Positions 6,162 to 45,193 of a DNA stretch of 64,000 bases are shown here, piece after piece. Origin of the DNA: Alphaproteobacteria bacterium (GTDB taxonomy: Bacteria; Pseudomonadota; Alphaproteobacteria; UBA828); the NCBI GenBank assembly GCA_965237415.1, contig CBDEFM010000001.1, forward strand, positions 576,001 through 640,000, written 5' to 3'. Within the stretch, counting starts at the first letter, position 1. Every line of letters starts with the position of its first letter. A program made the translations under genes and the position numbers. Under the pieces are notes generated by a model. It was not told the DNA's origin. It did not search any database and saw only the letters and a list, made by a program, of their open reading frames with translations.

Positions 6162-6236
6162 GCCCGTTGAGCCGGCGGCGTTCCCCCTCTCTGCCTCTGC
6201 CGCTCACCGGCGCGGCCTTATCCGAGGCCTGAGCCG

Positions 6237-6983: not shown

Positions 6984-7053
6984 CGCCCGCGTGGCAGCCA
7001 GACGAATCAACGGCTTGAGCTGTCAACGCGGCATATTCTGAATGTCGGCATAT

Positions 7054-7085
7054 TTGCCGCAATGCCGAAATCGGCATTGCGGTAA
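7054..7085. promoter_or_regulatory. palindrome, possible operator or hairpin
   Basis: CCGCAATGCCGA-AA-TCGGCATTGCGG: 12-bp perfect arms, extendable through one mismatch. Confidence 0.5.
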
Positions 7086-7319: not shown

Positions 7320-7417
7320 GCAGGGCGATCGGCCTCCGGGCGGGGCGCTGCGGTGGCCCTGGCATATGCGAGCCAGACGCCGGAGTCGCGCCGGTTCGGG
7401 TCGACGCCGCGGTGGTT
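7320..7417 (-). pseudogene. internal remnant of a GcvA-like LysR paralog
   Basis: NHRGVDPNRRDSGVWLAYA matches NHRGVDPARRDFDAWLAYS (11597-12544) and NHRGVDPDRRDFDVWLAYA (21819-22751). Confidence 0.7.
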
Positions 7418-7500
7418 ACCGGCATCATCGATGCGATTCCGGACGCGGGCCGGGATGAGCCGCGCAAGCAGGGTCAAATCCTGTCGCGGCTCGTCGAACG
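7416..7500 (+). pseudogene. degenerate IS21 istA fragment
   Basis: TGIIDAIPDAGRDEPRKQ resembles the IstA FTGIIDAILEADR..PRKQ motif and the FTGIIDA seen at ~20890. Confidence 0.55.
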
Positions 7501-7705
7501 CGTCGCTTCGGGCCAGGTGTCGGGCAGATCAGGGCCGGCGCGTGGTCGACAAGCTCCCGGCCTTCGCCTATGTGATGCCGGTTCGCACCGTGGCGAGCAC
7601 TGGGCCGGATGTCGTCACGGGCAAGCGGCGCAACATGCGTATCCCGGCCGGGGCGGTGTGCGGCCCGGGAGGTCCCGGGTACCGATGCGAGCGAGGAGGC
7701 TGCCG

Positions 7706-8782: not shown

Positions 8783-8857
8783 ACCTGCCCCGGTACCCGC
8801 GAGCAGGAACGCCCTCCAGGCAATATTGAAAGCGCCCAGTTGGACGCGGACGCCGGT

Positions 8858-10039
8858 TCAGGCGGCCAGCCGGTTCGCGATCCACTTGTGGAAGTGGTGG
8901 GTCGGCTCGTCCATGACGCCGGAGAACACACCCCCGAGAAAGGCGGGCGAGCCGCGTCCGCGCTGCATGCCCTCGACCACTCCCTGATCCTCCAGGAAGA
9001 CGTTGCGCCATGCTTCCTGCGTCGCGGCGCGCGCCGCGTCGTGGGCGGGGTCGCCCGCCGTCTCCCCGACATAGTAGATCTGCCAGTGCTCCCTCGTCCG
9101 GTCGGGTGAGAGCGGAAAGAGCACAATGGACCATATGTGGTCGTCGTGAACGCCGAGCAGGAGGTTCGGGAACACGGTGGGGTACTCCGACACCCCTTCC
9201 GGCCAGCCCTCGAAGCGGTGGAATCCGGCGGCGGCCTCGCCCGCGCCCGGTCGGTACAGGTTCGACCCCTGTCCCGCAAACAGGTCGCCGCCGTAGTAGT
9301 GGTAGTGGTCCTGGAGGCGCGATCGGCGGTTGAGGTCCCGGTGCACGAACGGCAGGTGGTAGCTCTCGAGGTTGTTCTCGACAACGAGCTTCCAGTTGCC
9401 GTCGAACTCGAGCTGGAAGCTGCCGTGGGTCGCGGCAGGTCGCATCCGTTCGATCTGGGTCCGGTGCGCAAGCCCGTAGACGCGCTCGGCGAGCGGGGCG
9501 ATGTGCTGCTCGAAGGGAGGCGCGTCGCCGCCCAGGTTCACGAATACGAGATCCAGCCACACCGCCGCGCGTATCGCCTTCAATCCGTGGGCACGGCGGT
9601 CGAAGCTGTCGTTCTCGTGCCGCCCGGGCCCGCCGATGTGCGGAGTGACCAGGAGCTCGCCGTCCAGGGCATAGGTCCATGCGTGGTAAGGGCAGCGGAT
9701 TCGCCCGCGGAAGCGGCAGGGCTCGCCTGCGAGCCGATTGCCGCGGTGGCTGCACACGTTGTGGAAGACGCGCACCCCGCCGGCCTCGTCGCGCAGCATG
9801 AGCAGGGGTTGACCCAGGAGCTCGACCGGGCGCGCATCGCCGGGCGCGGGGATCGTGCAGGCGTGACCGATGCAGGTCCAGGTCGGGGAGAACAGACGAT
9901 CGCGCTCCAGCGCCAGAAATCTCCACGAGGTATAGGCGTCGTTCGGCAGGCCGGCCGCATCGACGGTGGGGCGGTTGATGCGCTCGACCAGTTCGGGACG
10001 GAGGCCGTCCAGGCCGGAAACCGAAGGGATGGACTCCAC
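8858..10039 (-). CDS. Rieske non-heme iron oxygenase alpha subunit (choline monooxygenase/betaine-type)
   Basis: Rieske CSHRG...CPYHAW, NWKLVVENNLESYHLPFVH iron ligands, EDQGVVEGMQRG. GTG start at 10039 after GAGGA. Confidence 0.9.
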   Translation of the reverse strand: MESIPSVSGLDGLRPELVERINRPTVDAAGLPNDAYTSWRFLALERDRLFSPTWTCIGHACTIPAPGDARPVELLGQPLLMLRDEAGGVRVFHNVCSHRGNRLAGEPCRFRGRIRCPYHAWTYALDGELLVTPHIGGPGRHENDSFDRRAHGLKAIRAAVWLDLVFVNLGGDAPPFEQHIAPLAERVYGLAHRTQIERMRPAATHGSFQLEFDGNWKLVVENNLESYHLPFVHRDLNRRSRLQDHYHYYGGDLFAGQGSNLYRPGAGEAAAGFHRFEGWPEGVSEYPTVFPNLLLGVHDDHIWSIVLFPLSPDRTREHWQIYYVGETAGDPAHDAARAATQEAWRNVFLEDQGVVEGMQRGRGSPAFLGGVFSGVMDEPTHHFHKWIANRLAA

Positions 10040-10218
10040 GGCGTGTTCCTCGACCGGGTGAGCGGGCGAAACCGCGCGAGCGAAAGTTCTGCGCTTGCGG
10101 CCGGGTACTCCGCCTTGGCGGAATCGTCCACGACCGTCGATGCGCATCGGACCAACCTCCCGACATGTTGTCAACAAGGACTGTCTTGTCGATTCCTACA
10201 GGGACGATTGGTGAATGC

Positions 10219-10325
10219 GCAGGCGCGGCTGTTCGCAGCGCGGCGCGAGTCGCGCTCCGGGGAGGTGATGCAACTCGAGGAGCGGATCGGGCAGATGCGC
10301 AGGCAGACCGGAGGGGCTGAGGGGC
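10219..10325 (+). pseudogene. ~100-bp fragment of the HlyD gene
   Basis: QARLFAARRESRSGEVMQLEERIGQMRRQ versus QARLFAARRESRSGEVAQLRERIGQMRRQ in the HlyD gene at ~35215-35317. Confidence 0.8.
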
Positions 10326-10522
10326 ACGTGCTGCGCTCGAGCACCGGCGCGGGCGTTGCGAACGAGCGGGTGGAAACCGGACCCGGTCCGCCCGGTCCCG
10401 CCGGAATCGGGCGTTTCCGGCCGAAACCGCTTGCAATCGCCGGAAGGGGACGGCACCTGTCGGGCGGCGATGCGAGACCCGCACGGCGATCTGTGCAGCA
10501 GAACGGAAGGCCCGCGCCCGCC

Positions 10523-11578
10523 ATGTCCAGCCCCCTTGCCGGCATCGCCCGCTTTCCGCGGGTCCGGCTCGGCCACATGCCGACGCCGCTGGAGCCCGCG
10601 CCCAACCTGGGCGCGGCGCTCGGGATCGAGCTCTGGATCAAGCGCGACGACTGCACGGGCCTCGCCCTCGGCGGCAACAAGGTGCGCCAGCTCGAGTTCC
10701 ACTTCGGCGAGGCCCGCGCCCGGGGCGCGGACACGGTGCTGGTCACCGGCGCGGTGCAGTCGAACCTGGTGTGCATCGCCGCCGCCGCCGCGCGCCGGCT
10801 GGGGATGGCGATCCACATCCAGCTCGAAGACCGGGTGAAGGGCGCCGGGGACCTCTATTGCGCGTCGGGCAACCTGCTGCTCGACCGGGTGCTGGGGGCA
10901 ACGTTGCATGCGTTCCCCGAGGGCGAGGACGAGGCGGCGGCGGACGCGGCGATGGAACGGCGCGCAGCGGCGCTCGCGGCCGAGGGCCGCAAGCCCTACG
11001 TGATTCACTCCGCGCCGGACTGCCCGCCGCTCGGCGGGCTCGGCTACGTGCTGGCGGCCGGCGAGGTCGCGGAGCAGGCCGGAGACTTGCGGATCGGCTT
11101 CGACGCGGCGGTCACGGCCTCGGGCAGTGCGCTCACCCATGCCGGCCTGCTGGTCGGGCTGCGGGCGCTCGGCGAGCGGGTGCCGGTGCTCGGCATCTGC
11201 GTGCGGCGCGATGGCGGGCGGCAGGGCGCGCGGGTGGCGCAGGTGGGGTCCGGGCTCGCGGCGATGATCGGCTGGCCGGATGCGTTCGATGCGGGCGAGG
11301 TGGAGGTCTGCGACGCGGTGCTGGCGCCGGGCTATGGGCGGCTCAATGACGCGGTGCGCGAGGCGATGGCGCTGGCGGCGCGCCACGAGGGGCTGCTGCT
11401 CGACCCGGTCTATACGGCGAGGGCCATGGCGGGACTGATCGGCCATGTGCGCTCGGGCCGGATCGCGCCCGCGAGCCGGGTGCTGTTCGTGCACACCGGC
11501 GGGCAGCCGGCGCTGTTCGCCTATGGCGAGAGCCTGGGGCCCTGGCTGTCGGAAGCGCCCGGCGGACGGACGGGCTGA
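10523..11578 (+). CDS. D-cysteine desulfhydrase / ACC deaminase family PLP enzyme
   Basis: PTPLE, KRDDCTGLALGGNKVR PLP lysine, GAVQSN, LLDPVYT, FVHTGG. Confidence 0.9.
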   Translation: MSSPLAGIARFPRVRLGHMPTPLEPAPNLGAALGIELWIKRDDCTGLALGGNKVRQLEFHFGEARARGADTVLVTGAVQSNLVCIAAAAARRLGMAIHIQLEDRVKGAGDLYCASGNLLLDRVLGATLHAFPEGEDEAAADAAMERRAAALAAEGRKPYVIHSAPDCPPLGGLGYVLAAGEVAEQAGDLRIGFDAAVTASGSALTHAGLLVGLRALGERVPVLGICVRRDGGRQGARVAQVGSGLAAMIGWPDAFDAGEVEVCDAVLAPGYGRLNDAVREAMALAARHEGLLLDPVYTARAMAGLIGHVRSGRIAPASRVLFVHTGGQPALFAYGESLGPWLSEAPGGRTG

Positions 11579-11596
11579 GAATACCGGCGCGCCGGA

Positions 11597-12544
11597 TCAG
11601 GGTTGGCGCGGGGCGCCGTTGCCGGCGGAGCGTGGCGCGGCGGCCCGGGCCTCGCCGAGGATCCACTCCCGGAAGGCCCGCAGCTCCGGGCGCTGCCGCG
11701 AGGCGGCGGTGGTGATCAGGCAGCAGCGTTCCGGCGCCTCTTCCTGGCGGTCGAAGAGCGGCACCAGGATCCGCCGTTCCAGCTCGTGGGCGATCAGCAT
11801 GGGGCGTCCGATGGCGCCGCCGAGCCCGCTCGCGGCAGCCTGGACCAGCATGCTGTAGAGGCGGAAGCCGGAGGCGCGGGAGAGGTCCGGCGTGGGCTGG
11901 CCCTGGCGGGCGAACCAGTACGACCAGTCGGCGTCCCAGCCGAGATCGTAGAGCAGCGGCCAATCGGCGAGGTCGGCGGGGCCACGGGGCCGGCCGCGCG
12001 CGGCGAGCAGCGCCGGGCTGCACACCGGCAGCAGCTGCTCCTCGTAGAGCGTCTCCTCGAGCAGCGTGTCCTCGCGCCGTGTCAGCGGGCGCGGGGCGGA
12101 GGTCTCGCCCGAATAGGCGAGCCAGGCGTCGAAGTCGCGCCGCGCCGGGTCGACGCCGCGGTGGTTGGTCTCGAGTTCGATGGCGATGCCGGGGTGGGCG
12201 GCCTTGAACGAGACGAGCCTCGGCAGCAGCCACTTCTCGGCCACCGCCTCGACCGAGACGATGCGCACCCGCCGGGGGGTGTGGCGCTGGCGCTCGGAGA
12301 CGCCGTGGACTTCGGCCAGGATGCGCTGGACCTCCTTGAGATAGGCCCGGCCGCGGCGGTTGAGGCGCACGCCGCGGCGCCGGCGCTCGAAGAGCTCGGC
12401 GCCGAGATGCCTCTCCAGGGTGCGGATACGGTGGGCGACGGCGGCGGCGGTGACGCCGAGCTCCTTGCCGGCAAGGACGAAACTCTGGTGCCGGGCGGCG
12501 GCCTCGAAGAACCGCAGGCTTTCGAGCGGGGGAAGGTGCAGCAC
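11597..12544 (-). CDS. LysR-family regulator, GcvA-like
   Basis: LPPLESLRFFEAAARHQSFVLAGKELGVT HTH plus substrate-binding domain (KWLLPRL, LLPVCSPAL). Confidence 0.9.
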   Translation of the reverse strand: MLHLPPLESLRFFEAAARHQSFVLAGKELGVTAAAVAHRIRTLERHLGAELFERRRRGVRLNRRGRAYLKEVQRILAEVHGVSERQRHTPRRVRIVSVEAVAEKWLLPRLVSFKAAHPGIAIELETNHRGVDPARRDFDAWLAYSGETSAPRPLTRREDTLLEETLYEEQLLPVCSPALLAARGRPRGPADLADWPLLYDLGWDADWSYWFARQGQPTPDLSRASGFRLYSMLVQAAASGLGGAIGRPMLIAHELERRILVPLFDRQEEAPERCCLITTAASRQRPELRAFREWILGEARAAAPRSAGNGAPRQP

Positions 12545-12650
12545 GGGGAAGGTCCAGACGAAGCCCTTTGGCAAAACTCGATTATGTCATCTCACATCGG
12601 CGCGTCTCAGGCAAGCCGGGCGCCGCGGCGGAGCCGCCGGGACGCCGGCT

Positions 12651-12938
12651 CTAGGGGCCGCGAAAGCGCCTGCGGTCGCCGTGGCGCCCGGTGGTCTCAA
12701 TGATGTCGAGGAGGATGCGCCGGACTTCCTCGCAATAGGCCCGGCCGCGGCGGTTGAGACGCACGCCGCGATGGCGGCGGATGAACAGCGCGGCGCCGAG
12801 ATGGCTCTCGAGCATGCGGATGCGGTGGGCGACGGCCGGCGGGGTGACGCCGAGCTCGTCGGCGGCGAGGACGAAGCTCTGGTGCCGGGCGGCGGCGTCG
12901 AAGAAGCGGAGGCAGTCGAGGGGTGGGAGCGCGTACAT
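12651..12938 (-). CDS. stand-alone LysR HTH protein (95 aa)
   Basis: MYALPPLDCLRFFDAAARHQSF...; ends with TAG right after the linker helix, no effector domain. Confidence 0.75.
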   Translation of the reverse strand: MYALPPLDCLRFFDAAARHQSFVLAADELGVTPPAVAHRIRMLESHLGAALFIRRHRGVRLNRRGRAYCEEVRRILLDIIETTGRHGDRRRFRGP

Positions 12939-13055
12939 GGCGTTGCGGCAGTTTACGCAAATCATATTTGGTCATCGAGATAATTCACCTTGATAACGAT
13001 CAGGTCCGCGCCCCTCGTCGATCGCCGACCGCTGCAGGGTCGGGCGGGGGGTTCG

Positions 13056-13150
13056 GGTGGGCCCCTGGGGTCGGACAGTTTGAGGCGGCCGATTTGACCG
13101 GCTTGCGGGGCTGTTCCTCCTCAAAGCGGTTGGGGCTGAGATAGCCGGGC
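13056..13150 (-). mobile_element. IS3-family 3' end remnant
   Basis: GYLSPNRFEEEQPRKPVKSAA is a typical IS3 transposase C-terminus, followed by an IR-like AACTGTCCGACCCCAGGGGCCCAC. Confidence 0.6.
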
Positions 13151-13510
13151 AAGCGCATCGCGTCGAACCGAGCTTCGCACGCCTGCACGCGTTGGAGTGT
13201 CGCCTCCCAGCTATGCTCGAGCTGGGCAGCGATCAAACGGTTGTCCGGATCGCAGGCAGCATAGCGCCACTCGGCCAGCGAGGCCTCGTAGCGGGCTTGC
13301 TGCAGATCCAGTTCAGCCACGCGCTGGCGTTCGCGCAGCTCTTCCTCGCGCATGTGCTCAGCCTCCATCATGGCTTCGATTGCCATGGGCTCCACGACAC
13401 GAATGATCTCCTCGGCGATGGCGGCGTCCACACGAACACCGCCAAATATCTGGCAGCGCTCAAGCCCGAGCTGGATTCGCTGTTCATTGCAACGATAAAC
13501 CGGACTGCCG
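13151..13510 (-). pseudogene. large serine recombinase family fragment
   Basis: VYRC...C..FGGVRVDAAIAEE zinc-ribbon region and QARYEASLAEWRYAACDPDNRLIAAQLE coiled coil. Confidence 0.75.
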
Positions 13511-13714
13511 CGCCGCTGCTCCGAGTGCGCGCGAGGGTCGCTTCCGACGAACGAGCGCGGGGGTCATCGGGAGGGTTGACCGGGGCTGGCGAGGGGCGAT
13601 CGTAAGCCCAAGTATAATTTTCTCAATCAGATAATTGTCCTTTTCTAACAATCCGTTGACAACCTTTTCAGGTGATGGTCTGATTCTCTCAGACCGTCGA
13701 GGACGGTCCGGCCG

Positions 13715-14050
13715 GGGCGGGGATCCCGGGTCTCCAGCCGGCGGTGCGAATGTGATCGAACCCAGCCGTGGCGCCTGCGCGTCCGGGGTGCGGCGGTGCA
13801 CGGGGGACCGAGTGAGCGATGACCGCCGAGCCGAGCCAGGCCGCACCGCGCAGGGTCCGATCCCGGACCGAAGCGCCCCTTTCCAACCTTCCTTCCGCTG
13901 CCGGGCGGCCGGTCCTCTACGGGCCGCACCGGGCGCGGCGCATGTCCTGCCCCGCTTGCGTTGGCGCCGCCTCGGCGCGCGCGCCCTTTCCGCGTGAACG
14001 ATCGGCGCTGCGCCGCCCGTGCCGGCGCGGCGGCGCCGCCGGGGCGAAGG
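13715..14050 (+). promoter_or_regulatory. conserved upstream leader, copy A
   Basis: CCGGCGGTGCGAATGTGATCGAACCCAGCCGTGGCGCCTGCGC aligns with minus-strand CCGGCGGCGCGAATGTAATCGAAGCCAGCCGTGGCGCCTGCGC at ~28700-28742; weaker similarity downstream. Confidence 0.6.
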
Positions 14051-14175
14051 AAGGAGACGATGAGCGATCCACTCCAGGCGACAGGGATCGGGTGGGGGGC
14101 CACCCGCCGCCTGGCGACCGAATTGGTGTCTCGTGCGACCCGTGCGGCAGCACAGCGGACCAACAGGAGGCGGCG

Positions 14176-15054
14176 ATGAAGAACGAATTCGTGACAGCCA
14201 TGGGCACCGGGACTCGCGCCCGGCCGCTTGACGCGCGTCCCGCGGGCGGAGGGCGTTTCACGACGGCGAAGATATCGAGCCTTCGCGTGCTGGGCGCATT
14301 CGCCGCCCTGTTGTTCCTGGCGCCTCTTGTCATAGGGGAAGCTGAAGGAGCCTGCGAATCGAACCATCGACTCAGTCACAGCGAGGTCGACTGCCTTCAT
14401 GCCTGGTGGGACAACACGCCATCCGCGAGCACCGGCGTCCCCGGGGGAAGCACAGTGGCAGCGATCAGTAATTGTTCCATATACGGAACCGTCGTGGCGA
14501 AAATCGACATTAGGCACAGGAGTGATTGGACTTGGCACCTCGGAAACAGTTCCACGCGGAGGGGAAAGTTAGCGTACCATGATATTCGTGGAGTTTCTTG
14601 CTGTAGGGATATCTCAGACCTCTGCCTAAGACGGCAGGTCGAGGCCAACCCAGATGGCAGAATCGTCGTATACAACACCTCCAGCGCTTCATACGATGCG
14701 GTCGACGTCAGCACGCGTATAAAGCGCTACGAGTTCTGCCAGGACAATCCGGACAACATCTACTGCGTTGTCGATCCCAAGGGGGACGCGTACTGGGAGC
14801 CCAATTGCGGCGATCACGACTGCACGATGGGGGACTGCAACTGGCAGTGGAACAAGAGCGACGCAGCGGAGACCTGCACCAAGGAAGACATGGGCTTTAG
14901 CGGGCACAATTTTTGGTCGCCGCAGTGCGACATAGCTACGAATTGCAGAAGCGCGGATGGGTCTCGAAGCGTGCGAACCCGAGTCTTCGTCACACTGTGG
15001 GATATGGATGACCTGCAGAAATGCGATGATCTTCGAGTCAAGCTGAACTGCTGA
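14176..15054 (+). CDS. secreted cysteine-rich hypothetical protein
   Basis: AGGAGG RBS; hydrophobic signal LRVLGAFAALLFLAPLVIGEAEGA; 16 Cys in the mature part; lower GC than its neighbours. Confidence 0.8.
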   Translation: MKNEFVTAMGTGTRARPLDARPAGGGRFTTAKISSLRVLGAFAALLFLAPLVIGEAEGACESNHRLSHSEVDCLHAWWDNTPSASTGVPGGSTVAAISNCSIYGTVVAKIDIRHRSDWTWHLGNSSTRRGKLAYHDIRGVSCCRDISDLCLRRQVEANPDGRIVVYNTSSASYDAVDVSTRIKRYEFCQDNPDNIYCVVDPKGDAYWEPNCGDHDCTMGDCNWQWNKSDAAETCTKEDMGFSGHNFWSPQCDIATNCRSADGSRSVRTRVFVTLWDMDDLQKCDDLRVKLNC

Positions 15055-15094
15055 ACGCGGTCGAAGGCCCCCGAGGCCTGTCGCAGGTGCCCCA

Positions 15095-16618
15095 ATGGCC
15101 GATACGCGTGACACGGGGCAGCCGGCGGTTGCCGGTGGTCTCACGAAGCCCGCCGGCGCCGGATCAGGGCGGCACGGCCGCCCGGCGGGCACGCGGCATC
15201 CGGCGATGAGCCCCGTTCGCGCGCTTGCGCTGGTGCTGCTCACGTCGCCGATGCTGATCCTGTGGCCGGCGGCGGGCCAGGGGGCGGAGAGCGTCGCGGG
15301 CGAGCGCTTGGCGCTCACGCTCGACGACGCCATCCGGCTCGCGCTGCAGAACAACCGGGGCCTGCTCGACGCGCGGCTGCAGCGCACGATCCAAGAGTTC
15401 TCGCTGGAGGTGACGGAGGACCGCTACCGGCCTACGGCGAGCGTCGGGTCCTCGCTGCGCGGGCAGAAGGAGCAGGACGACTGGACGACGGACGTTGTCG
15501 CTGAGACGGGGCTCCGGGTTCGCACCGGCGGACAGGTCTCGCTGCGCTGGTCGAAGCCCCTTGCGGGCCGGGACGACACCGCCGGCATCGTCACCCTCGG
15601 CTTCTCGCAGCCGCTGCTGCGGGGCTTCGGGGCGGACGTCGAGACCGCGTCGCTCCGGGCGGCGCGGCTCGGCGAGAAGATCGGCGTTCTGGCCTTCCGC
15701 GAGACCATCGCCGGCGTCGTCGACTCCACGATCCGGGCCTGGCGCGGCCTGGTGCGGGCCGAGCGGCAGCTCGAGATCGGCGAGGCCTCGCTGGAACGCG
15801 CCCGCCAGCAGCTCGCGACCAACCGGACGCTGATCGAGGCGGGCCAGATGGCCGAGCGGGAAATCCTGCAGAGCGAGGCCGACGTCGCCGCGCGGGAACT
15901 CGGCCTGATCGAGACCCGGAACGGCGTGACCACGGCCAACTTCGGGCTCATCGACATCCTCGACATCGACAGCGCGACCGCGATCGAGCCGGTGCAGCGG
16001 CCCGCCGCCGCGCGGCCGGTGTTTTCGGTGCAGGAGGCCATCGAGGTGGCGCTCAGCCGCTCACCCGACCGTGCGCGGGCGCTCATGGACAAAGAGATCG
16101 CCGAGATCGACCTCGAGGTCGCCGAGGACGACCAGCGCTGGGACCTCTCGTTGGACGCCGAAGCGTCGCGCGGCACCGGCGGCGGCGGCCAGGGGACCGA
16201 CTATTCGGCAGGGCTGCGGCTGACGGTTCCGCTCTGGGACCGCGGGCCCGAGCTCGGGCTGATGGGGGCGCGCGCCGATGTCACGCAGGCCGAGCGCCGC
16301 CTGGTGGAGCTGCGCCAGTCCATGGACATCGCCGTGCGCCAGGCGGTGCACGACGTTGAGGTGGGTCTGAGACGGATCGAACTCGCCCGCCAGGCGCTGG
16401 CGCTCACGGAGGAGAAGCTCGCGATCGAGCGGAGCAAGTTGCAGCAGGGGCTGTCCTCGACCTTCCAGCTCAGCCGCTTCGAGGAAGACCTGGTGAGCGC
16501 GCAGAACGCCGAGGTGGACGCGCTGGTCGACTACGAGAACGCGCTCACGTCGTTGGATCGGACGCTGGGCACGACGCTCGAGACCTGGGGCATCGCGGTC
16601 GAGCAGGTCGGCCGATGA
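15095..16618 (+). CDS. TolC-family outer membrane efflux protein (alternative start 15206)
   Basis: LTLDDAIRLALQNN, FSQPLLRGFG, LTVPLWD; two OEP repeats; signal peptide. Confidence 0.88.
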   Translation: MADTRDTGQPAVAGGLTKPAGAGSGRHGRPAGTRHPAMSPVRALALVLLTSPMLILWPAAGQGAESVAGERLALTLDDAIRLALQNNRGLLDARLQRTIQEFSLEVTEDRYRPTASVGSSLRGQKEQDDWTTDVVAETGLRVRTGGQVSLRWSKPLAGRDDTAGIVTLGFSQPLLRGFGADVETASLRAARLGEKIGVLAFRETIAGVVDSTIRAWRGLVRAERQLEIGEASLERARQQLATNRTLIEAGQMAEREILQSEADVAARELGLIETRNGVTTANFGLIDILDIDSATAIEPVQRPAAARPVFSVQEAIEVALSRSPDRARALMDKEIAEIDLEVAEDDQRWDLSLDAEASRGTGGGGQGTDYSAGLRLTVPLWDRGPELGLMGARADVTQAERRLVELRQSMDIAVRQAVHDVEVGLRRIELARQALALTEEKLAIERSKLQQGLSSTFQLSRFEEDLVSAQNAEVDALVDYENALTSLDRTLGTTLETWGIAVEQVGR

Positions 16619-18390
16619 CGGACGGGCACCCAGGCATCCACGGGAGCGTCCTGGAGAACCTGCTCGACGGGGTGATGGTGGTCGAGCGCGGCGGCACCGT
16701 CACGGTGTTCAACCGGGCGGCGGGCCGCATCCTCGGCCTCTCGCCCGGCGAGGTGGTGGGGAACAGCTTTGCGGCGCACTTCATCGCCCGCGAGGGCTTC
16801 GAAGAGCTCAGCGAGCTGATCCTGGACGCCGTGGCCGGGGAGAGCGAGGCTCGCCGGCAGGTGGTGAGCCTCAATGCCGGCAGCGAGACGCGGTCGCTCT
16901 CGGTGGCGACCTCCTACCTGCGCTCGAACGTGGACGGCAAGCCCGTGCCGGTGGCGCTGATCGCCGTGTTCAGCGACATCACCGAGCTCAAGGAGCTGCG
17001 CGAGACCGAGCTGCGGATGGCGAAGGCGGTGGAGGCGCAGCACACCGAGCTTCAGTCCGCCTACCGGCAGATCGAGGAGCGCAACGCAACCCTCGCCGCG
17101 ACGCTGAAGAAGGTTCAGGTCGCGCGGATCATGGCGACGGTGCTGGTGATCGGGGTGTTCCTGGGCGCCGGCGCCTATGTGTGGCAGCCGCTGGACCTGT
17201 TCGGCGGCTCGTCCGATTCGTCCATGGTCGCAGAGGCCGAAGCCGGCGTCTCGGACGGCTTTCGCATGGTGACGGTCGAGCCTCGGCCGATACGGGAGAC
17301 GATCTCGCTGTCGGGCAAGCTGGCGCCGTGGCGGACGGTCGCGGTGACGATCCCGATCCAAAGCACCATCGCCGCGGTGCACTTCCAGTATGGCCAGGAA
17401 GTGAAAGAGGGCGATCTGCTGGTGGAGCTGGACACCACCGAGGCGGTGCGGAAGCACCGCGAGGTGCAGGTGAAGTACATCGAGAAGCTGGAGGCATACG
17501 AGAACGTCGCGAACTGGGAGAGCGGACCCGAAATGGCCGAGGCGCGGCGGTCGTTCACGCGCGCGCGGATGGCGCTCGAGAACCAGGAGAGGCGCCTCAA
17601 GCGGACCACGTTCCTGCTGGAGCAGGGCCTGATCGCAGCCTCCGAGCACGAGGACGCGGAACGGCAGTATCAGAGCCAGCTTCTGGACTTCGAGGCGGCC
17701 CGCGACGACTTCGAGGCAGCAGGCGCCGGGGGCAGCCGGGAGGCGCTGGACAAGGCAGCGCTGGAGCTCAGTACCGCCGAGGAAGAGTTGGCGGAGCTCG
17801 CCGAGAACCTGGGGAAGAGTCGCGTCCATGCGCCGCTGGCAGGCGTTGTCCTGGCGGCGGCGCGCAGCGGCGGCACGCCGCCCCAGGCTGGCACACCGCT
17901 GAGGGAAGGCGAGGCGCTGCTGAGCATCGGGGACTTCGGCCGCATGGCGGCGACCGCCATGGTGGACGAGATCGACGTCGTGCGAATTGCGGTCGGCCAG
18001 GCGGTGTCGGTCACCGGCAACGCATTCCGCGACCTGAGGCTGAATGGCACCGTCACCCACGTTTCGTCGCAGCCCGACCAACGCTCGCGCGGCGCCTCCC
18101 AGTTTGCGGTCGAGGTGACGCTCGACCCGCTTGAGGAGGAGCAGCGGGAGCGATTGCGCGCGGGCATGTCGAGCAGGATGCGGATCGTCGTCTACCAGAA
18201 CGACGCCGCGCTGATCGTGCCGCTGGACGCGGTGGAGCGCCGCGGCCGGATGCATCGGGTCCGTGTGGTCGACCCGGCGACCCGCGAGGTGAAGGAGCGT
18301 GAGGTGAAGATCGGACCCACCACCATGGATTCGGTCGAGATCGTTGCCGGTCTTGCACCCGGCGACGAGATCGTGGTGCCGAAATACTGA
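16615..18390 (+). CDS. MacA-type periplasmic adaptor (MFP) with N-terminal PAS domain
   Basis: N-terminal VLENLLDGVMVVERGGTVTVFNRAAGRILG...VFSDITELKE (PAS), coiled coil, TM, then lipoyl motifs (GQEVKEGDLLVELD, VHAPLAGVV) and GLAPGDEIVV. Confidence 0.88.
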   Translation: MTDGHPGIHGSVLENLLDGVMVVERGGTVTVFNRAAGRILGLSPGEVVGNSFAAHFIAREGFEELSELILDAVAGESEARRQVVSLNAGSETRSLSVATSYLRSNVDGKPVPVALIAVFSDITELKELRETELRMAKAVEAQHTELQSAYRQIEERNATLAATLKKVQVARIMATVLVIGVFLGAGAYVWQPLDLFGGSSDSSMVAEAEAGVSDGFRMVTVEPRPIRETISLSGKLAPWRTVAVTIPIQSTIAAVHFQYGQEVKEGDLLVELDTTEAVRKHREVQVKYIEKLEAYENVANWESGPEMAEARRSFTRARMALENQERRLKRTTFLLEQGLIAASEHEDAERQYQSQLLDFEAARDDFEAAGAGGSREALDKAALELSTAEEELAELAENLGKSRVHAPLAGVVLAAARSGGTPPQAGTPLREGEALLSIGDFGRMAATAMVDEIDVVRIAVGQAVSVTGNAFRDLRLNGTVTHVSSQPDQRSRGASQFAVEVTLDPLEEEQRERLRAGMSSRMRIVVYQNDAALIVPLDAVERRGRMHRVRVVDPATREVKEREVKIGPTTMDSVEIVAGLAPGDEIVVPKY

Positions 18391-18405
18391 GCGCGGGGCC
18401 CCGCG

Positions 18406-19086
<681 letters not shown>

Positions 19087-19100
19087 GGCATCGGGTTGCG

Positions 19101-20318
19101 ATGAGGCGGTCGGGACCGGCTCTGACGGCTACCCTTCGCGAGGCGGTGCGCAGCCTCTACGGCGCCCGCTTGCGCACGCTGCTGGGGCTGATCGGCATCA
19201 CCATCGGCATCGCCTCGGTGATCGCGATGATCTCGACGGGGGAGATCGCAACGGCCCAGTCGCGCAAGCAGTTCGAGGCCGTGGGCACCGACATTCTCTC
19301 CATCGAGAAGTCCGACGACATGGCGCGCACGGCCTCTGGGCAGGGGCCGGCGATCGGCCTCGAAGGCGCGCTCGATCTCGCGGACGCGCTTTCGACGGTC
19401 TCGGACGCGGCACCCCGGATCCGGTCGCAGGGCAAATTCGGCTATGGCGGCAAGTCCATCGGCTCGGGCTCCCTGCAGGGCGTCTCTGCCTCTTTCCTGG
19501 GCGTCAACAGGCTGCGCGTCGCCGAGGGACGCTTCGTCTCGGACATGGACACAGGCCGCTACTTCGCGGTGGTCGGTGCCGAGGTGGCCGGGTCCATGCG
19601 TCGCCGCAGTACCGGCGAGATCGTCGGCGAAACCCTGGAGGTCGATGGGCGCCTCTACACGGTCATCGGTGTGCTGGCGGACGCGCCGGAAAGCTATGCG
19701 CTGCCCTTCCAGGTGGAAGCGAACCGATCCGTGTTCGTGCCCGTCACCACCGTGAGGCGCACAGACCCGAGCGCCGAGATCGAACTGATCATCGCCCGTG
19801 CGGCGCCCGGCATTCACTACACGGAAGCGGCGCGCGACATCGAGGCCTACTTTGCGGAGCGCACCAGGGGACTCGCGGTCGAGGTCACCAGTGCCGAGCA
19901 GCTGATCGAGCAGATGGAATCCCAGCTCGGGCTGATGACGCTGCTGCTCGGCGCCGTCGGCAGCATCAGCCTCATCGTCGGCGGCATCGGCGTGATGAAC
20001 ATCATGCTGATCTCGGTGACCGAGCGCAGGCGCGAGATCGGCGTGCGGCGCGCCCTCGGCGCAACCCGCGGCCACATTCAGCGTCAGTTCCTGAGCGAGG
20101 CCCTGATCCTGACTCTGGGCGGCGGCATCGCCGGGGTCGTGGTCGGGAACGGGACCGCCTACGGCATCTGCCAGTACTTCGCGTGGGATTTCCTCTTGTC
20201 GCCCACACCCATCGTCGCGGGTGTCGGCGTCTCGACCGTTGTCGGCCTCTTCTTCGGCTTCCAGCCCGCCTATCAGGCCTCACGTCTCGATCCCATCGTC
20301 GCCTTGCAGGGGGAATAG
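19101..20318 (+). CDS. MacB/FtsX-type ABC permease
   Basis: RTLLGLIGITIGIASVI, ISLIVGGIGVMNIMLISVTERRREIGVRRALGA, PAYQASRLDPIVAL. Confidence 0.93.
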   Translation: MRRSGPALTATLREAVRSLYGARLRTLLGLIGITIGIASVIAMISTGEIATAQSRKQFEAVGTDILSIEKSDDMARTASGQGPAIGLEGALDLADALSTVSDAAPRIRSQGKFGYGGKSIGSGSLQGVSASFLGVNRLRVAEGRFVSDMDTGRYFAVVGAEVAGSMRRRSTGEIVGETLEVDGRLYTVIGVLADAPESYALPFQVEANRSVFVPVTTVRRTDPSAEIELIIARAAPGIHYTEAARDIEAYFAERTRGLAVEVTSAEQLIEQMESQLGLMTLLLGAVGSISLIVGGIGVMNIMLISVTERRREIGVRRALGATRGHIQRQFLSEALILTLGGGIAGVVVGNGTAYGICQYFAWDFLLSPTPIVAGVGVSTVVGLFFGFQPAYQASRLDPIVALQGE

Positions 20319-20359
20319 AGTGCTCCTGCGAGGCGACGGCCATAACGCCTGAGAACGGG

Positions 20360-20600
20360 GAGGTCGCCTGCATCGGCGCGTTCTATGTCGCGCGCGGCCT
20401 GGAGGACGGATCGAACGAGTCAGGGGACTACGCGAGCACCGTTTACCGGCCCGTCAACCCGTACCTCGACCCCCAGTATCCCGGCGATGCCGGTCTGAGC
20501 GACCCGAACCGCTGGCAAACGCTGGCCCTTCGCCTGTTCATCGATCAGGCTGGCAATCCGGCAGACGGGATTCATGAGTTCGTGACCCCCGAATGGGGCG
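20360..20600 (+). pseudogene. fragment resembling a vanadium-dependent haloperoxidase-family protein
   Basis: GLEDGSNESGDYA...YRPVNP...DPNRWQTL...FIDQAGNP...FVTPEWG; no start; cut by an IS21 end. Confidence 0.6.
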
Positions 20601-20912
20601 GTTAACGGCGGCCCAATAATGCCCCACGCGGAGCGGCCGGGCGGTCCGGTCGCGGCGGCGCAACATTCGCCACCTATGGTCCCTTGTCGGCTGCGACGAG
20701 GGGCGGGGGATGTACGGCGTGGAGATCTATTCGGCGGTTCGGCTTGCGGTTGTCGATGAGGGACTGAGCCATCACGAGGCGGGCCGGCGGTTTGGCATCG
20801 ACCGTCGCACGGTGAAGAAGATGCTGCGTTATTCGTCGCCACCGGGGTATCGGCGGACGAAGCCGGTGCGGCGGCCCAAGCCGGACGGGTTCACCGGCAT
20901 CATCGACGCGAC
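20600..20912 (+). mobile_element. istA: IS21-family left end plus istA 5' fragment
   Basis: GTTAACGGCGG...CCCCAC and a repeated CGGCGG...CCACC end motif; MYGVEIYSAVRLAVVDEGLSHHEAGRRFGIDRRTVKKML from 20710. Confidence 0.8.
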
Positions 20913-21411
20913 CCCGGCGCCTCGGGCGGCGTGGGGGGGCGCGTTGGTCCAGCTCGCGAAACGCCGCGGCGCGCGGGCGATCGCCATGGCGTCCGAGGCC
21001 AAGCACGCCGAGGTGGCGAGGCTCGGCGCAGACCTGATCCTGCCGCGTGCGCCCGAGGACCTGCGCGAGGCGTTGGAGGGCGAGACGGTCACGGTCGTCG
21101 CCGATGTCGTCGGCGGGCCCGGCTGGCCGGCGCTGATCGACATCCTCGCGCGCGGCGGGCGCTACACCTGCTCCGGCGCCATCGCCGGGCCCACGGTCGC
21201 GCTCGACCTGCGCGGCCTCTATTTGCGCGACCTCACCTTCACCGGCTCCACCGTAGTGCCGGGCCACGTCTTCCGGGATGTCGTGGGCTACATCGAGCGG
21301 GGGGAGGTCAGGCCGGTGCTGGCGGCGACCTGGCCGCTCTCCGAGCTCCGCGCCGCCCAACAGGCGTTCATCGACAAGCGCCACGTCGGGAACATCGTGG
21401 TCGTGCCGTGA
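20913..21411 (+). pseudogene. third, diverged copy of the MDR oxidoreductase (C-terminal half), in one ORF with the istA fragment
   Basis: GGALVQLAKRRG...GNIVVVP is near-identical to 8285-8782 with a few substitutions (LGADLILPRAPEDLRE versus LDPDRILPRAPGDLRG). Confidence 0.88.
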
Positions 21412-21818
21412 ACCTGTCGCGCGCTCGCCCTGGGCACCGGCGGGACGAGATGCCCTCCGGCAATACCTGACCGCGTCCGGTCGGGCGCGAAAGACGATCC
21501 GCGCGGCTTCTCCGTTTCACCGATAGTCCCGACGGCGGCAAGATCACGCGCCGCGGACGATCCTTCGCGGGGACCTGCGCGACGCACGTTGGCCGCCGAC
21601 ATCGGGTGGATCGCGGGCTGAATCCGGGGAGCTGCATCGCGGTGACCAGGATGGTCCCGACCTCGCCTCCCGGAGCATACGGAAGGGTTCCTCCGGCGCC
21701 GGGCGTGACGACCTCCACGATGCCCCTTCCGGCCGACGCGCCCCGGGCAATGGCCGCACACGCGCATCCCCTCGACACCTGCGCCGCTCGCGCCGAGTCC
21801 GGGAAGCCCGCCGCCCGG

Positions 21819-22751
21819 TCAGCAGAGCGGCGCGGCCGCGGCCCTGTACCCTTGCGCGGCCTCCCGGAGGACCCATTCGCGGAACGCCTGCACCTCGGAC
21901 CGGCGCCGGGCGGCGGCGGTGGTGATGAGGCAGCAGCGCGCGGGCACCCCGGCCTCGCGGTCGAAGAGCGGGACCAGCCGGCCGTCGTCGAGCTCGCGGG
22001 CGATGACGCCGGGGCGTCCGATGGTGGCGCCCAGCCCCTCGACCGCGGCGTGGATCACCATGCTGTAGAGGCGGAACCCCGAGGCGCGCGAGAGATCGGG
22101 CGCCGGCACGCCCTGGCGGGCGAACCAGCAGGGCCAGTCGGCTTCCCATCCGAGATCGTAGAGCAGCGGCCAGCGGTGCAGGTCGGCGGGCGCCCGGGGC
22201 CGCCCGCGCGCCTGGATCAGCGCGGGGCTGCACACCGGCAGCAGCGCCTCCTCGACCAGCGTGTCCTCGCCCGGACGGAGCTCGGGACGCCGCGCCGCGG
22301 TCGGGCCGGCATAGGCGAGCCAGACGTCGAAGTCGCGCCGGTCGGGGTCGACGCCGCGGTGGTTGGTCTCGATCTCGACCGCGATGTCGGGATGGGAGGC
22401 CTCGAAGCCGGGCAGCCGCGGCATGAGCCACTTCTCGGCCAGCGATTCGACCGAGACCATCCTGACGCTCCGGGCGACCTCGCGGCCGCGATGGAGCTCG
22501 GTGGCGCTCTCCAGGTCGGCGAGGATGCGGCGCACGTCGCTCAGATAGGCCCGGCCGCGGCGGTTGAGGCGCACCCCGCGGCGCCGGAGGCGGTCGAACA
22601 GGGGATGGCCGAGATGGTCCTCGAGCATCTTCACGCGGTAGCCGACGGCGGCGGCGGTGACCTCGAGCTCCTCGGCGGCGCGGGCAAAGCTTTCGCGCCG
22701 CGCCGCGGTCTCGAAGAAGCGCAGGCAGTCCAGGGGCGGCAACGGGGGCAT
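21819..22751 (-). CDS. LysR-family regulator, GcvA-like paralog
   Basis: LPPLDCLRFFETAARRESF; substrate domain closely similar to 11597-12544. Confidence 0.9.
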   Translation of the reverse strand: MPPLPPLDCLRFFETAARRESFARAAEELEVTAAAVGYRVKMLEDHLGHPLFDRLRRRGVRLNRRGRAYLSDVRRILADLESATELHRGREVARSVRMVSVESLAEKWLMPRLPGFEASHPDIAVEIETNHRGVDPDRRDFDVWLAYAGPTAARRPELRPGEDTLVEEALLPVCSPALIQARGRPRAPADLHRWPLLYDLGWEADWPCWFARQGVPAPDLSRASGFRLYSMVIHAAVEGLGATIGRPGVIARELDDGRLVPLFDREAGVPARCCLITTAAARRRSEVQAFREWVLREAAQGYRAAAAPLC

Positions 22752-23785: not shown

Positions 23786-26700
23786 TCAAATGGCGTCCAC
23801 GACCTCTTCCACCGCCAGGGTGTAGCTGCCGGTCCTGTCCCTGTACGCACCCGCCGCCACGTAGTAGGCGCCGTCCGTGACCGGGGTAAAGGTCATCTGG
23901 CTGTTGTAGCGCGTGCCGCCGTCGTCGTCCGTAGTACCGTCAATCAGGGCGCCGGTCGCATCGTGAATGCCGCGCAGATACGGGTCCCGCAAGGTGCCCT
24001 TGTCGGTCCATAATCCCTCCAGATCGAACCGGTACTTCTTGCCGGCCAGCAGTTCGACCGCAAACCAGTCGTTGTCGCCGGCGTAGCCAATAGCGCTGCT
24101 CACCGAAGAGCCGACCGAGACCGTGCCGATTGTGCCGGTATCCGCGGCAACATCCAGTTTCGGGGTCACATCGGTTACCGACAGGGTGTACGTGCCCAGA
24201 TGGTCTGGATGAGAGAACCACGACCCCGCCTCCACATAGTAGGTGCCGCCGGCTTCCGGTCTGAAGGTCAATGTGCCGAGCGAATTCGCAGCGCGGTCGG
24301 CATGTGACGTTCCTGGAACCCCGTTGCCGTCGGCGTCGCGTATCCAATGGAGAAACGGTTGCGTCAGTGTGCCCTTGTCGGTCGACCTTCCTTCCAGGTC
24401 GATCCGGTAGGTCTTGCCCGCCACCAGCTCCACCGCGAACCAGTCGCGATCGCCCGGCCGCTCAATCTCGCCGGTGGCCGAATCTCCAACCGCAACAGTC
24501 CCCTCCGTTTGGGTGTTGGCCACGTAGTCGTCGCGGGCCTCGCTGACGGATAGCGTGTAGGTGCCGCCGAAGACCTCCCCGTCCCCCCCGGCTGCTACGT
24601 AGTAGGTGCCGTCTGTTTCCGGCCTGAAGTACACTTGGCTGTTCGCACCCGTACGGATGCCGTTGTCGTTTACCGTTCCCGGAAGCAGGTTGCCTTCACC
24701 GTCGTGGATCCCGTGAATGTACGGATTCATCAAAGTGCCGTCGTCCGAGATGCGCCCTTTCAGGTCTATCTGGTAAGTCTTGCCCGCCTCCAGGGTCACC
24801 GCAAACCAGTCGCGGTCCTCCCTCCGTTCGACCTCGCCGGTGACCGAGCCCCCGACCGCGACCGAACCGCTCGTCCGGGTGCTGGCCACATAGTCGTCCC
24901 CTGCGCCGAGAAGTGACGTCACCGACAGCGTGTAGGTGCCGGTGCGCGACCCATCCGCCCCGGCCGCTACGTAATAGGTGCCGTCCGCGGTCGGCGTGAA
25001 CAGCACCCGGCTGTTGCTGCCGCCGTAGCCGCTGTCGTCGTTCGTCGTGCCGGGGATCGGGTTGCCGTCAGCATCGTGGATCCCGTGGAGGTATGGGTCC
25101 CTCAGCGTGCCCTTGCCCGTGTACATTCCCTCCAGGTCGATGCGGTACGTGTGGCCCACCTCCAACTCGACCGCAAACCAGTCGCGGTCACCGTCCACCT
25201 TGACCTCACCGGTGACCGAACCCCCCGCCGCAACCGTCCCCCTGGTCCCGGTATCGGCCGCGTAGTCGTCCGGCACCTCGGCGACCAGCACCGTGTAGGT
25301 GCCCATATGTCCTCCGGCGCTCCCGGCCGCCACGTAGTAGGTGCCGTCCTCGATCGGCGTGAAGTACACCCGGCTGTCAAAACCACCGGAGCCGGTGTCG
25401 TTGTTCGTCGTGCCGGGAATCAGGTTGCCGTCAGCGTCGTGGATGCCTCGCAGATACGGATCTCGCAAGGTACCGTTACCCGACAGCGCACCCTTGAGCT
25501 CGAATTTGTAAGTCTTGTCAGCCTCCAGGGTCACTGCGAACCAGTCGCCGTCGGCTGGAATGTCGATGTCGCCGGTGGCCGAACCCCCCACCGCAACCGT
25601 CCCCGTCGTCCCGGTATCGGCTGCGTAGTCGTCCGCTATCTCGGAGACCGCCAGCTCGTAAGTGCCGTAGATGCCGTAATTGGAACCCGGGCGGGGCGTA
25701 TCGTAGCCGGCCGCGATGTAGTACGTACCGTCCGCGGGTGCCTCGACGTACACTAGGCTGTTCAGGCCGTAGCCGCCGTCGTCGTTCGACGTGCCGGGGA
25801 TCGGGTTGCCATCGGCGTCGTGGATCCCGTGAAGATACGGATCGAACAGGGTGCCGTCTTGTGTCCACGTCCCCTTGAGGCCGACGGCGTACAACTTGCC
25901 CGCCACCAGCTCCACCGCGAACCAGTCCCGGTCGCCCGGCGTTTCGATCACGCCCCGGACCGAGCCCCCGACCGCAACGGTCCCCGCTGTGCTGGTGTCG
26001 GCGGCAATATCCGGCGGCAGTTGGATGGCCGACAGCGTGTAAGTGCCGGCACCCGGGCCACTCCCCCCGGCCGCCACGTAGTAGGTGCCGTCCGCGGGCG
26101 CCTCGAACTGCACCAGGCTGTTCCGGACGACGCCGCCGTCGCCGTCCGTCGTGCCGGGGATCAGGTCGCCGTTCGCGTCGTAGATCCCGTAGAGACGCGG
26201 ATCCGCCAGCGTGCCCTTGCCGGTGTCCTCTCCCTCCAGGTCGAAGCGGTACGTGTAACCTGCCTGCAACTCCACCGCGAACCAGTCGCGGTCCCCGTCC
26301 AACTCGACCTCGCCGGTTACCGAACTCCCCACCGCGAGCGTACCCGCGGTCCCGCTATCGGACGAAAAATCGTCCGGCACCTCACTGACCAGCACCGTGT
26401 AAGTGCCCTCATTTCCTCGGACCCCACGGGCCGCCACGTAGTAGGTGCCCGCCACGGTCGGCTCGAAGTACACGAGGCTGTCGGTTATGTGGCCGCCGTT
26501 GTCGTCCGTCGTGCCGGGGACCAGGTTGCCGTCCGCGTCGTGGATGCCTAGCAGATATGGATTCCACAAGGTGCCGTTACCCGAATTTACTCCCTTGAGC
26601 TCCACCTTGTAGACCTTGCCCGCCTCCAGGGTCACCGCAAACCAGTCGCGATCCCCCCTCCGTTCAATCTCGGCAGTGGTCGGAACCCCGACCTCGGCGA

Positions 26701-42889: not shown

Positions 42890-42964
42890 ACCGGCGTCCG
42901 CGTCCAACTGGGCGCTTTCAATATTGCCTGGAGGGCGTTCCTGCTCGCGGGTACCGGGGCAGGT

Positions 42965-44041: not shown

Positions 44042-44070
44042 CGGCAGCCTCCTCGCTCGCATCGGTACCC

Positions 44071-45190: not shown

Positions 45191-45193
45191 TTG

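Follow-up and report, generated by a model that had tools for sequence, protein, structure and literature searches.

A PAS domain joined to the periplasmic adaptor of a MacB-type tripartite exporter

Introduction

Can a secretion machine that spans two membranes be addressed from inside the cell through its periplasmic adaptor? This question is raised by a gene on the + strand of a 64,000-nucleotide stretch of DNA from an Alphaproteobacteria bacterium (contig CBDEFM010000001.1, positions 576,001 to 640,000; the whole stretch is referred to here as the window). An earlier note, made from the letters of the window, had reported that the product of this gene joins a PAS sensor domain to the adaptor of a TolC/MacB-type exporter, and had proposed that a signal gates the pump. 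Tripartite pumps are known to be controlled mainly via transcription, and their adaptors are seen as periplasmic parts. Here, we find that the feature is real, conserved and widespread, that it is a variant of a known pump type, and that it is undescribed in print within the literature searched. We then weigh what a PAS domain might do in such a position.

One protein combines a PAS domain, a coiled coil, a membrane helix and a MacA-like adaptor

The gene at 16615..18390 is a single open reading frame (ORF) of 591 amino acids with an ATG start, and this ATG, at 16615, overlaps the TGA stop of the upstream ORF (16616-16618) as ATGA: ...ggccgATGAcgg... An AlphaFold2 model of the protein, built on 62 relatives and with a mean predicted local distance difference test (pLDDT) score of 81.2, places a PAS domain at residues 19-121, an unbroken helix at 123-185, a disordered tether at about 186-215 and a four-domain adaptor behind it; pLDDT falls below 50 in the tether (184-214). 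Together with the profile matches and alignments described below, this yields the following parts, with the evidence for each in brackets.

16615..18390, + strand: PAS-coiled coil-transmembrane-MacA-like adaptor protein, 591 amino acids (ORF, profiles, relatives, model, Foldseek)
16642..16980, + strand: predicted cytoplasmic PAS domain, residues 10-122, with an S-D-I-T motif at its end (profiles, profile search, model)
16981..17115, + strand: putative signaling helix, residues 123-167, heptad-periodic and unbroken into the membrane helix (conservation, model, length classes)
17116..17184, + strand: single transmembrane helix, residues about 168-190 (hydrophobicity; helical in the model)
17185..17259, + strand: variable periplasmic tether, residues about 191-215 (low pLDDT, least conserved)
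17260..18387, + strand: periplasmic adaptor with membrane-proximal, beta-barrel, lipoyl and long alpha-hairpin domains, residues 216-591 (TIGR01730, model, Foldseek)

The sole hydrophobic segment of the protein lies at about residues 168-190 (best 19-residue Kyte-Doolittle window 2.07, at residue 172) and is preceded by KK..R. Because this is the only membrane helix and the adaptor is necessarily periplasmic, the PAS domain would lie in the cytoplasm. The presence of PAS domain, coiled coil, membrane helix and MacA-like adaptor in one protein is virtually beyond doubt, and the parts listed in the earlier note (a PAS domain ending in DITELKE, a coiled coil, a transmembrane segment, the adaptor and the ATGA overlap) proved correct throughout.

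The fusion recurs in many genomes

Among 8000 scored candidates, 291 relatives were found at E ≤ 0.001. Both the PAS Pfam family and the adaptor families were present in 117 of the 120 relatives among the matches listed, which share 49-87% identity with the window protein and are 478-625 amino acids long; those without both were P0069 (478 amino acids, on a 2.9-kb contig), P0075 and P0084 (540 amino acids). A comparison of the first 200 residues with 1.84 billion cluster representatives returned 7213 matches at E ≤ 0.001, 549 at E ≤ 1e-10 and 49 at E ≤ 1e-30. From the best 150 of these, 78 matches of 544-1064 amino acids, each standing for a 50%-identity cluster, were combined with the window protein into a wide family of 79 members, and the remaining 72, which were short fragment-like proteins or long multi-PAS proteins with 4-32 matched stretches, were left out. 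Within the wide family, HlyD_3 was found in 78 and PAS_4 in 76 of the 79 members, at identities to the window protein down to 29%. Two members carry additional domains: P0257 (621 amino acids) consists of a cyclic-nucleotide-binding domain, a PAS domain and the adaptor, and P0139 (1064 amino acids) runs on from the PAS-adaptor into a MacB periplasmic core domain, which could be either a true fusion or a read-through in gene calling.

An accidental fusion, a frameshift or an assembly artefact that joined a PAS gene to an adaptor gene deserves consideration in a region this rich in rearranged, mobile DNA. Against it stand the shared architecture and length of the 117 relatives and the 78 further clusters, the conservation of M1 and T2 at the N-terminus of the alignment, and short-read contigs from four runs in two studies that span 16559-16981 and 16960-17358 with 0-2 differences (one of these may be the window's own source). 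We therefore regard an artefact as exceedingly improbable. The earlier note had allowed for an architecture unique to this contig, which the many relatives in other genomes contradict, and these alignments indicate that the PAS-adaptor fusion is native and old.

A PAS domain continues into a phase-conserved helix

The N-terminus scores above the curated cut-offs of three PAS profiles, namely Pfam PAS_4 (residues 13-126, 34.9 bits, cut-off 23.1), Pfam PAS (residues 12-104, 32.5 bits, cut-off 22.6) and the NCBIfam model TIGR00229 sensory_box (residues 11-130, 46.4 bits, cut-off 22.9), which settles a point that had been set beforehand as a test of the proposal. The domain terminates in ...AVFSDITELKE (residues 117-127). 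A phmmer search of the N-terminus against PDB sequences gave a weak match to PYP only; a profile built from 11 N-termini was stronger and matched the PAS domains of WalK, DhaR, PYP, DosP and FixL among solved structures. In the model, strands at residues 19-24, 28-32, 82-88, 91-106 and 109-121 form a five-stranded sheet, and helices at 34-40, 44-47, 52-57 and 63-74 lie between strands 2 and 3, which is the canonical order; pLDDT in this domain is about 80-89.

Behind the PAS domain, the helix at 123-185 comprises the cytoplasmic linker and the membrane segment without a break. We measured conservation in the close family as the mean share of the majority residue in six regions of the protein. 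The linker helix was the most conserved of the six, at 0.79, compared to 0.68 for the PAS domain, 0.67 for the adaptor and a minimum of 0.52 for the tether. As judged from these alignments, the PAS-helix module is under purifying selection.

Spacing was measured from D121, the invariant Asp of S-D-I-T, to the position of Gly184 in the membrane helix. In the wide family it is 63 residues in 58 of 79 members and 56, or one heptad shorter, in 16, with 59 in four and 60 in one, so that heptad phase is kept in 74 of these diverse members; in the close family it is 63 in 60 of 62 and 54 in the other two. The seven-residue gaps fall within the cytoplasmic helix, and those of 3-4 residues fall next to the membrane part or inside it. 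The conserved core residues alternate in steps of 3 and 4 (L146, Y150, I153, N157, L160, L164, V167 and R171) and form two series, L146/I153/L160/V167 and Y150/N157/L164/R171. Asn157 is present in 61 of 79 members; a core Asn is typical of parallel coiled-coil dimers. The helix thus has both linker lengths that differ by whole heptads and a hydrophobic a/d core, which suggests that it behaves as a PAS-coiled-coil signaling helix. In kinases with PAS or LOV sensors, according to excerpts of PMC6798134, a heptad-periodic linker length marks signal transmission through a coiled coil. Two copies of residues 1-200 modelled as a complex scored 0.30 against a mark of 0.42, a result that says nothing either way.

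The adaptor belongs to a MacB-type pump operon

The C-terminal part of the protein scores 127.6 bits with TIGR01730 RND_mfp (cut-off 94.9), and HlyD_3 and HlyD_D23 are also above their cut-offs. The long hairpin is formed by helices within residues 275-399 of the AlphaFold2 model. In Foldseek searches the top match was MacA in the MacAB-TolC assembly (9qgy_G, E 1.3e-24, TM-score on target 0.65, 376 aligned columns), and 5nik_D gave a TM-score on target of 0.63. The score with the MacA equivalog NF008606 was 63.1 bits against a cut-off of 342, and that with the type I HlyD adaptor model TIGR01843 was 42.9 against 208.65, so the protein is an orthologue of neither MacA nor type I HlyD. By its profile matches it belongs to both the adaptor superfamily and the PAS superfamily. 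For TolC binding, adaptors have at the hairpin tip the motif R-x3-L-x6-S. In the wide family, L334 and G338 at the tip are present in 78 of 79 members and the Arg position is R in eight; the exact motif is absent from the window protein.

The genes on either side of the adaptor encode the remaining parts of an exporter, and a cysteine-rich protein precedes them.

14176..15054, + strand: cysteine-rich, putatively secreted protein, 292 amino acids, candidate cargo (ORF, relatives, signal-peptide-like stretch, neighborhood, model)
15095..16618, + strand: TolC-like outer-membrane factor, 507 amino acids as the longest ORF (Pfam OEP 117.7 bits, cut-off 22)
18406..19086, + strand: MacB/LolD-type ATP-binding cassette (ABC) ATPase, 226 amino acids, a separate polypeptide (ABC_tran 113.4 bits)
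19101..20318, + strand: MacB-type permease with periplasmic core domain and FtsX (MacB_PCD 111.5 bits, FtsX 78.7 bits)

The outer-membrane factor also reaches 84.7 bits with TIGR01844, which is under that model's cut-off of 225.15. The translation of the ATPase shows Walker A, signature and Walker B motifs and aligns with residues 4-221 of the MacB model NF007826. The permease may start at GTG 19026, which gives the longest ORF, or at ATG 19101; alignments with relatives begin at residue 20-31 of this ORF form with the GTG start. A permease with MacB_PCD and FtsX, a MacB/LolD-like ATPase, an adaptor and a channel are therefore encoded in one operon, the composition of a MacB-type (type VII ABC) tripartite exporter, and the assignment to the TolC/MacB type in the earlier note holds, with OEP upstream of the adaptor and the ATPase and permease downstream. 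The DevA, DevB and DevC models all remained under their family cut-offs (DevB 56.7 against 129).

We compared 15 distinct loci, consisting of the window, 8 records of metagenome-assembled genomes and stretches of 6 further genomes, with duplicates merged. The order channel-adaptor-ATPase-permease is kept in 13 of them; L002 is rearranged and L003 stops at a contig end. ATPase and permease are separate genes in every locus examined, unlike the fused MacB of E. coli. Besides the four pump genes, genes for the cysteine-rich protein are the only recurrent neighbor. A scan of 13400-20900 found no promoter-like sites on the + strand, and terminator-like sites inside ORFs only.

Comparison with known systems

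The closest known counterpart is MacA of the E. coli MacAB-TolC pump (PDB 5NIK, 9QGY and 3FPP), which likewise has hairpin, lipoyl, beta-barrel and membrane-proximal domains, uses an N-terminal membrane helix rather than a lipid as its anchor, and works with a MacB-type ABC transporter and a TolC-like channel. The window protein differs by about 165 extra cytoplasmic residues, which make up the PAS domain and the coiled coil, and its operon differs from MacAB in having separate genes for ATPase and permease. The statement in the earlier note that MacA normally has little cytoplasmic part agrees with the review literature, which in excerpts of PMC13328181 describes MacA as having no cytoplasmic domain and HlyD as having only a small one. 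HlyD is also an adaptor anchored by a membrane helix with a cytoplasmic N-terminal domain, and the same excerpts describe this domain as linking cytoplasmic events to channel recruitment (PMC13328181). In contrast with the window protein, the domain of HlyD is small, binds substrate and is not of the PAS fold, and its partner is a six-helix ABC exporter rather than MacB.

Histidine kinases with a PAS or LOV sensor and a coiled coil (YF1, FixL and BvgS type) share with the window protein a PAS domain that ends in D-I-T and a parallel coiled coil that varies by whole heptads, as set out in excerpts of PMC6798134. In the window protein, the helix instead enters a membrane helix and a periplasmic adaptor rather than a kinase or cyclase, signals would presumably travel from the cytoplasm towards the periplasm, and no phosphotransfer partner is present. 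Split exporters of the DevBCA type resemble the window operon in their separate genes for ATPase, FtsX-type permease and adaptor and in their use of an outer-membrane factor; they differ in that the DevA, DevB and DevC models score below threshold here, and the reviews searched describe no PAS-bearing adaptor in that type. In the literature searched, which covered Creative Commons-licensed PubMed Central articles and bioRxiv, we found no paper describing a PAS-bearing adaptor. The term 'PAS domain' is absent from the adaptor and pump reviews among them, and PMC11218460 mentions PAS and HlyD separately.

The PAS module as a possible input to the pump

The arrangement described above suggests how the protein might work, namely as the periplasmic adaptor of a MacB-type (type VII ABC) tripartite exporter with a cytoplasmic input module. 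Its four-domain MacA-like part would bridge the permease to the TolC-like channel, and the PAS domain would take up a cytoplasmic signal that alters the packing or register of the parallel coiled coil of about 45 residues. The membrane helix would then pass this change to the pump, through either adaptor-dependent stimulation of the ATPase or assembly with the channel, which would be the logic of a sensor kinase run inside-out with the pump as output. With less confidence, the substrates would be Sec-exported, disulfide-rich proteins picked up from the periplasm, as MacAB-TolC of E. coli does with STII. According to excerpts of PMC5985334, MacB ATPase stimulation is lost when MacA lacks its cytoplasmic region or its membrane helix, the structural basis of this stimulation is unresolved, and MacB, which lacks a path for substrate across the membrane, expels cargo from the periplasm. 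Because the sensor is attached through a phase-conserved rod to the type of helix that MacA needs for ATPase stimulation, we read the PAS module as an input, and on balance find it somewhat probable that it adjusts either adaptor-dependent ATPase activity or the assembly of the pump from the cytoplasmic side. Its sensory character is supported indirectly by P0257, in which a cyclic-nucleotide-binding domain stands before the PAS domain.

Several observations weigh against an input function. No Cys is present in residues 1-130 of the protein, and the F-alpha stretch (63-74) is without His in all 11 aligned sequences. In PAS domains, a Cys holds the flavin adduct (LOV) or the chromophore (PYP), and a His in F-alpha holds heme (FixL/DosP), so that covalent LOV or PYP chromophores and His-ligated heme are unlikely here. 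The residues that are near-invariant in the wide family (G19, V20, G27, N33 and D121) are for the most part of a generic structural kind. Spacings of 59 or 60 in 5 of the 79 members and of 54 in two of the 62 close relatives, together with a 5-residue deletion behind the D-x-S/T-E motif of the helix in L006 (a record titled Aphanocapsa feldmannii; 5831-6325), which would shift the heptad phase, imply that phase is not absolute. Finally, paired PAS domains would have to fit the expected six adaptors per pump, which in an assembled MacB-type pump go with two transporters and three channel subunits.

A PAS-coiled coil unit could instead serve as a structural clamp that senses nothing and stabilizes the assembly, either by pairing adaptor protomers or by docking separate ATPase subunits under the permease. 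The generic nature of the most conserved PAS positions, the lack of cofactor residues, and the separate ATPase and permease genes in all loci examined, unlike in E. coli MacB, would all suit this explanation, and the core Asn of the helix is also expected in a fixed parallel dimer. However, other split MacB-type systems, whose LolD, DevA and DevB models score in the same searches, are without such a module, a clamp would not need a helix more conserved than the adaptor, and the stacked cyclic-nucleotide-binding domain of P0257 would be left unexplained. We consider a clamp unlikely on these grounds. PAS domains also act as protein-protein interaction modules, and signaling might therefore run outside-in, with the adaptor sensing periplasmic cargo or pump assembly and the PAS domain as an output that binds a cytoplasmic partner, for example a regulator. 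Adaptors are described as periplasmic substrate sensors in excerpts of two reviews (CusB and MacA; PMC13328181, PMC5985334), and genes for LysR-type regulators flank the region. Yet these LysR genes belong to duplicated local DNA outside the conserved unit, and the 15 loci share no gene for a partner next to the operon, where the four pump genes and the cysteine-rich genes alone recur, which makes outside-in signaling improbable.

A further explanation is that the cytoplasmic domain recognizes cargo in the cytoplasm, in the manner of the small N-terminal domain of HlyD in type I secretion, which binds the signal of its substrate according to excerpts of PMC13328181; a 1526-amino acid repeat protein is encoded 3.4 kb downstream. 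The transporter here is of the MacB type (MacB_PCD and FtsX), though, and this type takes periplasmic cargo and has no transmembrane path in excerpts of PMC5985334. The type I HlyD score lies far under its cut-off, the recurrent cysteine-rich neighbor has a predicted N-terminal signal peptide, and the repeat protein is not a conserved neighbor. Cargo recognition in the cytoplasm is thus very improbable.

Under the reading that we favor, in which the PAS module is an input, a natural sensor is attached to the very helix behind MacA-MacB stimulation and would offer a direct handle on the unresolved question of the ATPase. If gating is true, export across two membranes would be under post-translational control from inside the cell, and the unit of PAS domain, helix and membrane helix might be a portable inside-out switch.

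A cysteine-rich family as candidate cargo

The longest form of the ORF for the cysteine-rich protein starts at 13819; relatives have the 292-amino acid form (P0121, 292 amino acids, 98% identical over 100%). This form has a signal-peptide-like hydrophobic N-terminus and at least seven invariant cysteines, and Pfam contains no family for it. The family is small, with 14 matches, and occurs as a short form of about 200 and a long form of about 290 amino acids; its N-terminal module is found as well at the start of longer proteins, whose open frames span about 810-950 amino acids. Although the protein was modelled well (pLDDT 84.2, with 208 residues at ≥90), Foldseek found no match in the PDB at E ≤ 0.001 and the ESM Atlas gave no usable match. 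In a wide search with VIA-align, the best scores were Z 6.0 (tendamistat, 66 residues) and Z 5.0 (cyanovirin-like, at 227-291), which are below the meaningful level, and we therefore name no fold for the family.

Homologues of the cysteine-rich protein were found in the fetched flanks of nine of the 15 loci, with up to three in tandem. In 61 related genomes, the adaptor is present in 8, the cysteine-rich family in 10 and both in 7, which corresponds to the family being in 7 of 8 genomes with the adaptor compared to 3 of 53 without it. The carriers all belong to one genus, so these co-occurrences are not independent events. By analogy with STII, which according to excerpts of PMC5985334 is exported by Sec, oxidized by Dsb and then expelled by MacAB-TolC, the Sec-exported, disulfide-rich proteins beside the operon may be the cargo of the pump, which we regard as a reasonable possibility that falls somewhat short of probable.

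A number of findings speak against this assignment. The fetched flanks of the other six loci (L001/G012, L004, L005, L007, L019 and L020) contain no cysteine-rich gene, and among the 61 genomes one has the adaptor without the family (G008) and three have the family without the adaptor (G001, G005 and G014; in G005, no adaptor was found with the window query). Two other copies in the genome of the window (G000:C2, about 1525800-1526200 and 1539900-1540300) adjoin unrelated genes, one copy forming the N-terminal part of a 932-amino acid protein. In addition, the enterotoxin STII has 48 residues, and a folded protein of about 230 residues would be far larger. The linked family is without known fold or function, and its export route is directly testable. 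We also considered the 1526-amino acid PPC-repeat protein (23786-28366) as cargo and rejected it, as no homologue lies near the operon in other loci. As a separate observation, locus L001 has a gene for a DsbA/ScsC-like thiol-disulfide oxidoreductase (12905-13669) 1.2 kb downstream of the operon, and this is one of the loci without a cysteine-rich gene in its flanks.

The operon has a patchy distribution and bears marks of mobility

Seven of 20 congeners were found to have the adaptor, compared to none of 16 genomes from the family's other genera and none of 24 further relatives. In an even sample of the class, with three candidates scored per genome, matches to the adaptor at E ≤ 1e-40 came from 4 of 400 other genomes, and three of these matches were full-length. 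Among the sequencing runs listed for the window, none was of RNA, and ten runs with small shares (0.05-0.11), one of them labelled sponge metagenome, give no evidence of habitat. Proteins 49-73% identical to the adaptor come from records whose titles name Alphaproteobacteria, Thalassobaculaceae, Rhodobacterales, Candidatus Binatia (two complete chromosomes), Chloroflexi and Aphanocapsa, of which the Chloroflexi and Aphanocapsa records are short contigs and may be mis-binned. In one congener, G011 (locus L023; G011:C3, about 9806-11962), a 2.2-kb insertion with a gene for a DDE transposase in the opposite orientation interrupts the adaptor gene at residue 345-347. The simplest reading is that the operon is a patchy, cross-phylum accessory unit that moves horizontally.

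Short-read contigs of runs X1 and X6 join position 20653 back to 13057, with 4 letters between the two and 53 letters on the shorter side. This junction implies a tandem duplication or a circle of a 7.6-kb unit, whose content is precisely the cysteine-rich gene and the four pump genes; from 20654 onward, the window continues in a repeat of very high depth. Taking these observations together with those on the protein itself, we tentatively propose that a PAS domain, a phase-locked coiled coil and a membrane helix switch a two-membrane secretion machine at the protein level and time the release of a new disulfide-rich family, with pump and cargo moving between phyla as one small mobile unit. As a whole this proposal is possible rather than probable.

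Surroundings of the operon in the window

Around the operon are genes of conjugation (for a coupling protein and a relaxase), transposases and gene fragments, and the window in its entirety resembles an integrated conjugative or plasmid-like region. The features outside the operon are as follows.

2413-3894, 6237-7085, 44038-45474, 62675-63991 and 53209-54949: TrwB-type coupling protein, TrwC relaxase N-domain, two AAA_30 helicase parts, SSB and Toprim protein
20710-21411 and 20934-21421: chimeric ORF with a helix-turn-helix-like N-terminal stretch and a dehydrogenase copy
23786-28366, - strand: 1526-amino acid protein with about a dozen PPC (PF04151) repeats, period 360-405 nucleotides
28917-30158 and 33174-34130: transposases
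46429-47208: HepT-like gene

The pump operon also lies between the arms of a perfect (100%) inverted repeat of 5253 nucleotides, which are at 7677-12929 and 38818-44070 with 25,888 nucleotides between them. The arms carry genes for a zinc-type dehydrogenase, an 813-amino acid PALP-domain protein and a LysR protein, together with an N-terminal fragment of a LysR gene, and the repeat could either be genuine, as an invertible or composite structure, or have arisen in assembly. We rejected a tie between the operon and LysR regulators, the flanking LysR genes being part of local duplications. In the chimeric ORF, the N-terminal stretch lies in the repeat DNA of very high depth, and the rest matches the 3' part of the dehydrogenase gene (7412-8782) at 96%. 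Behind it, at 21819-22751, is a LysR paralogue with 78% DNA identity to 11597-12574, and both this paralogue and the chimeric ORF look like scars of rearrangement.

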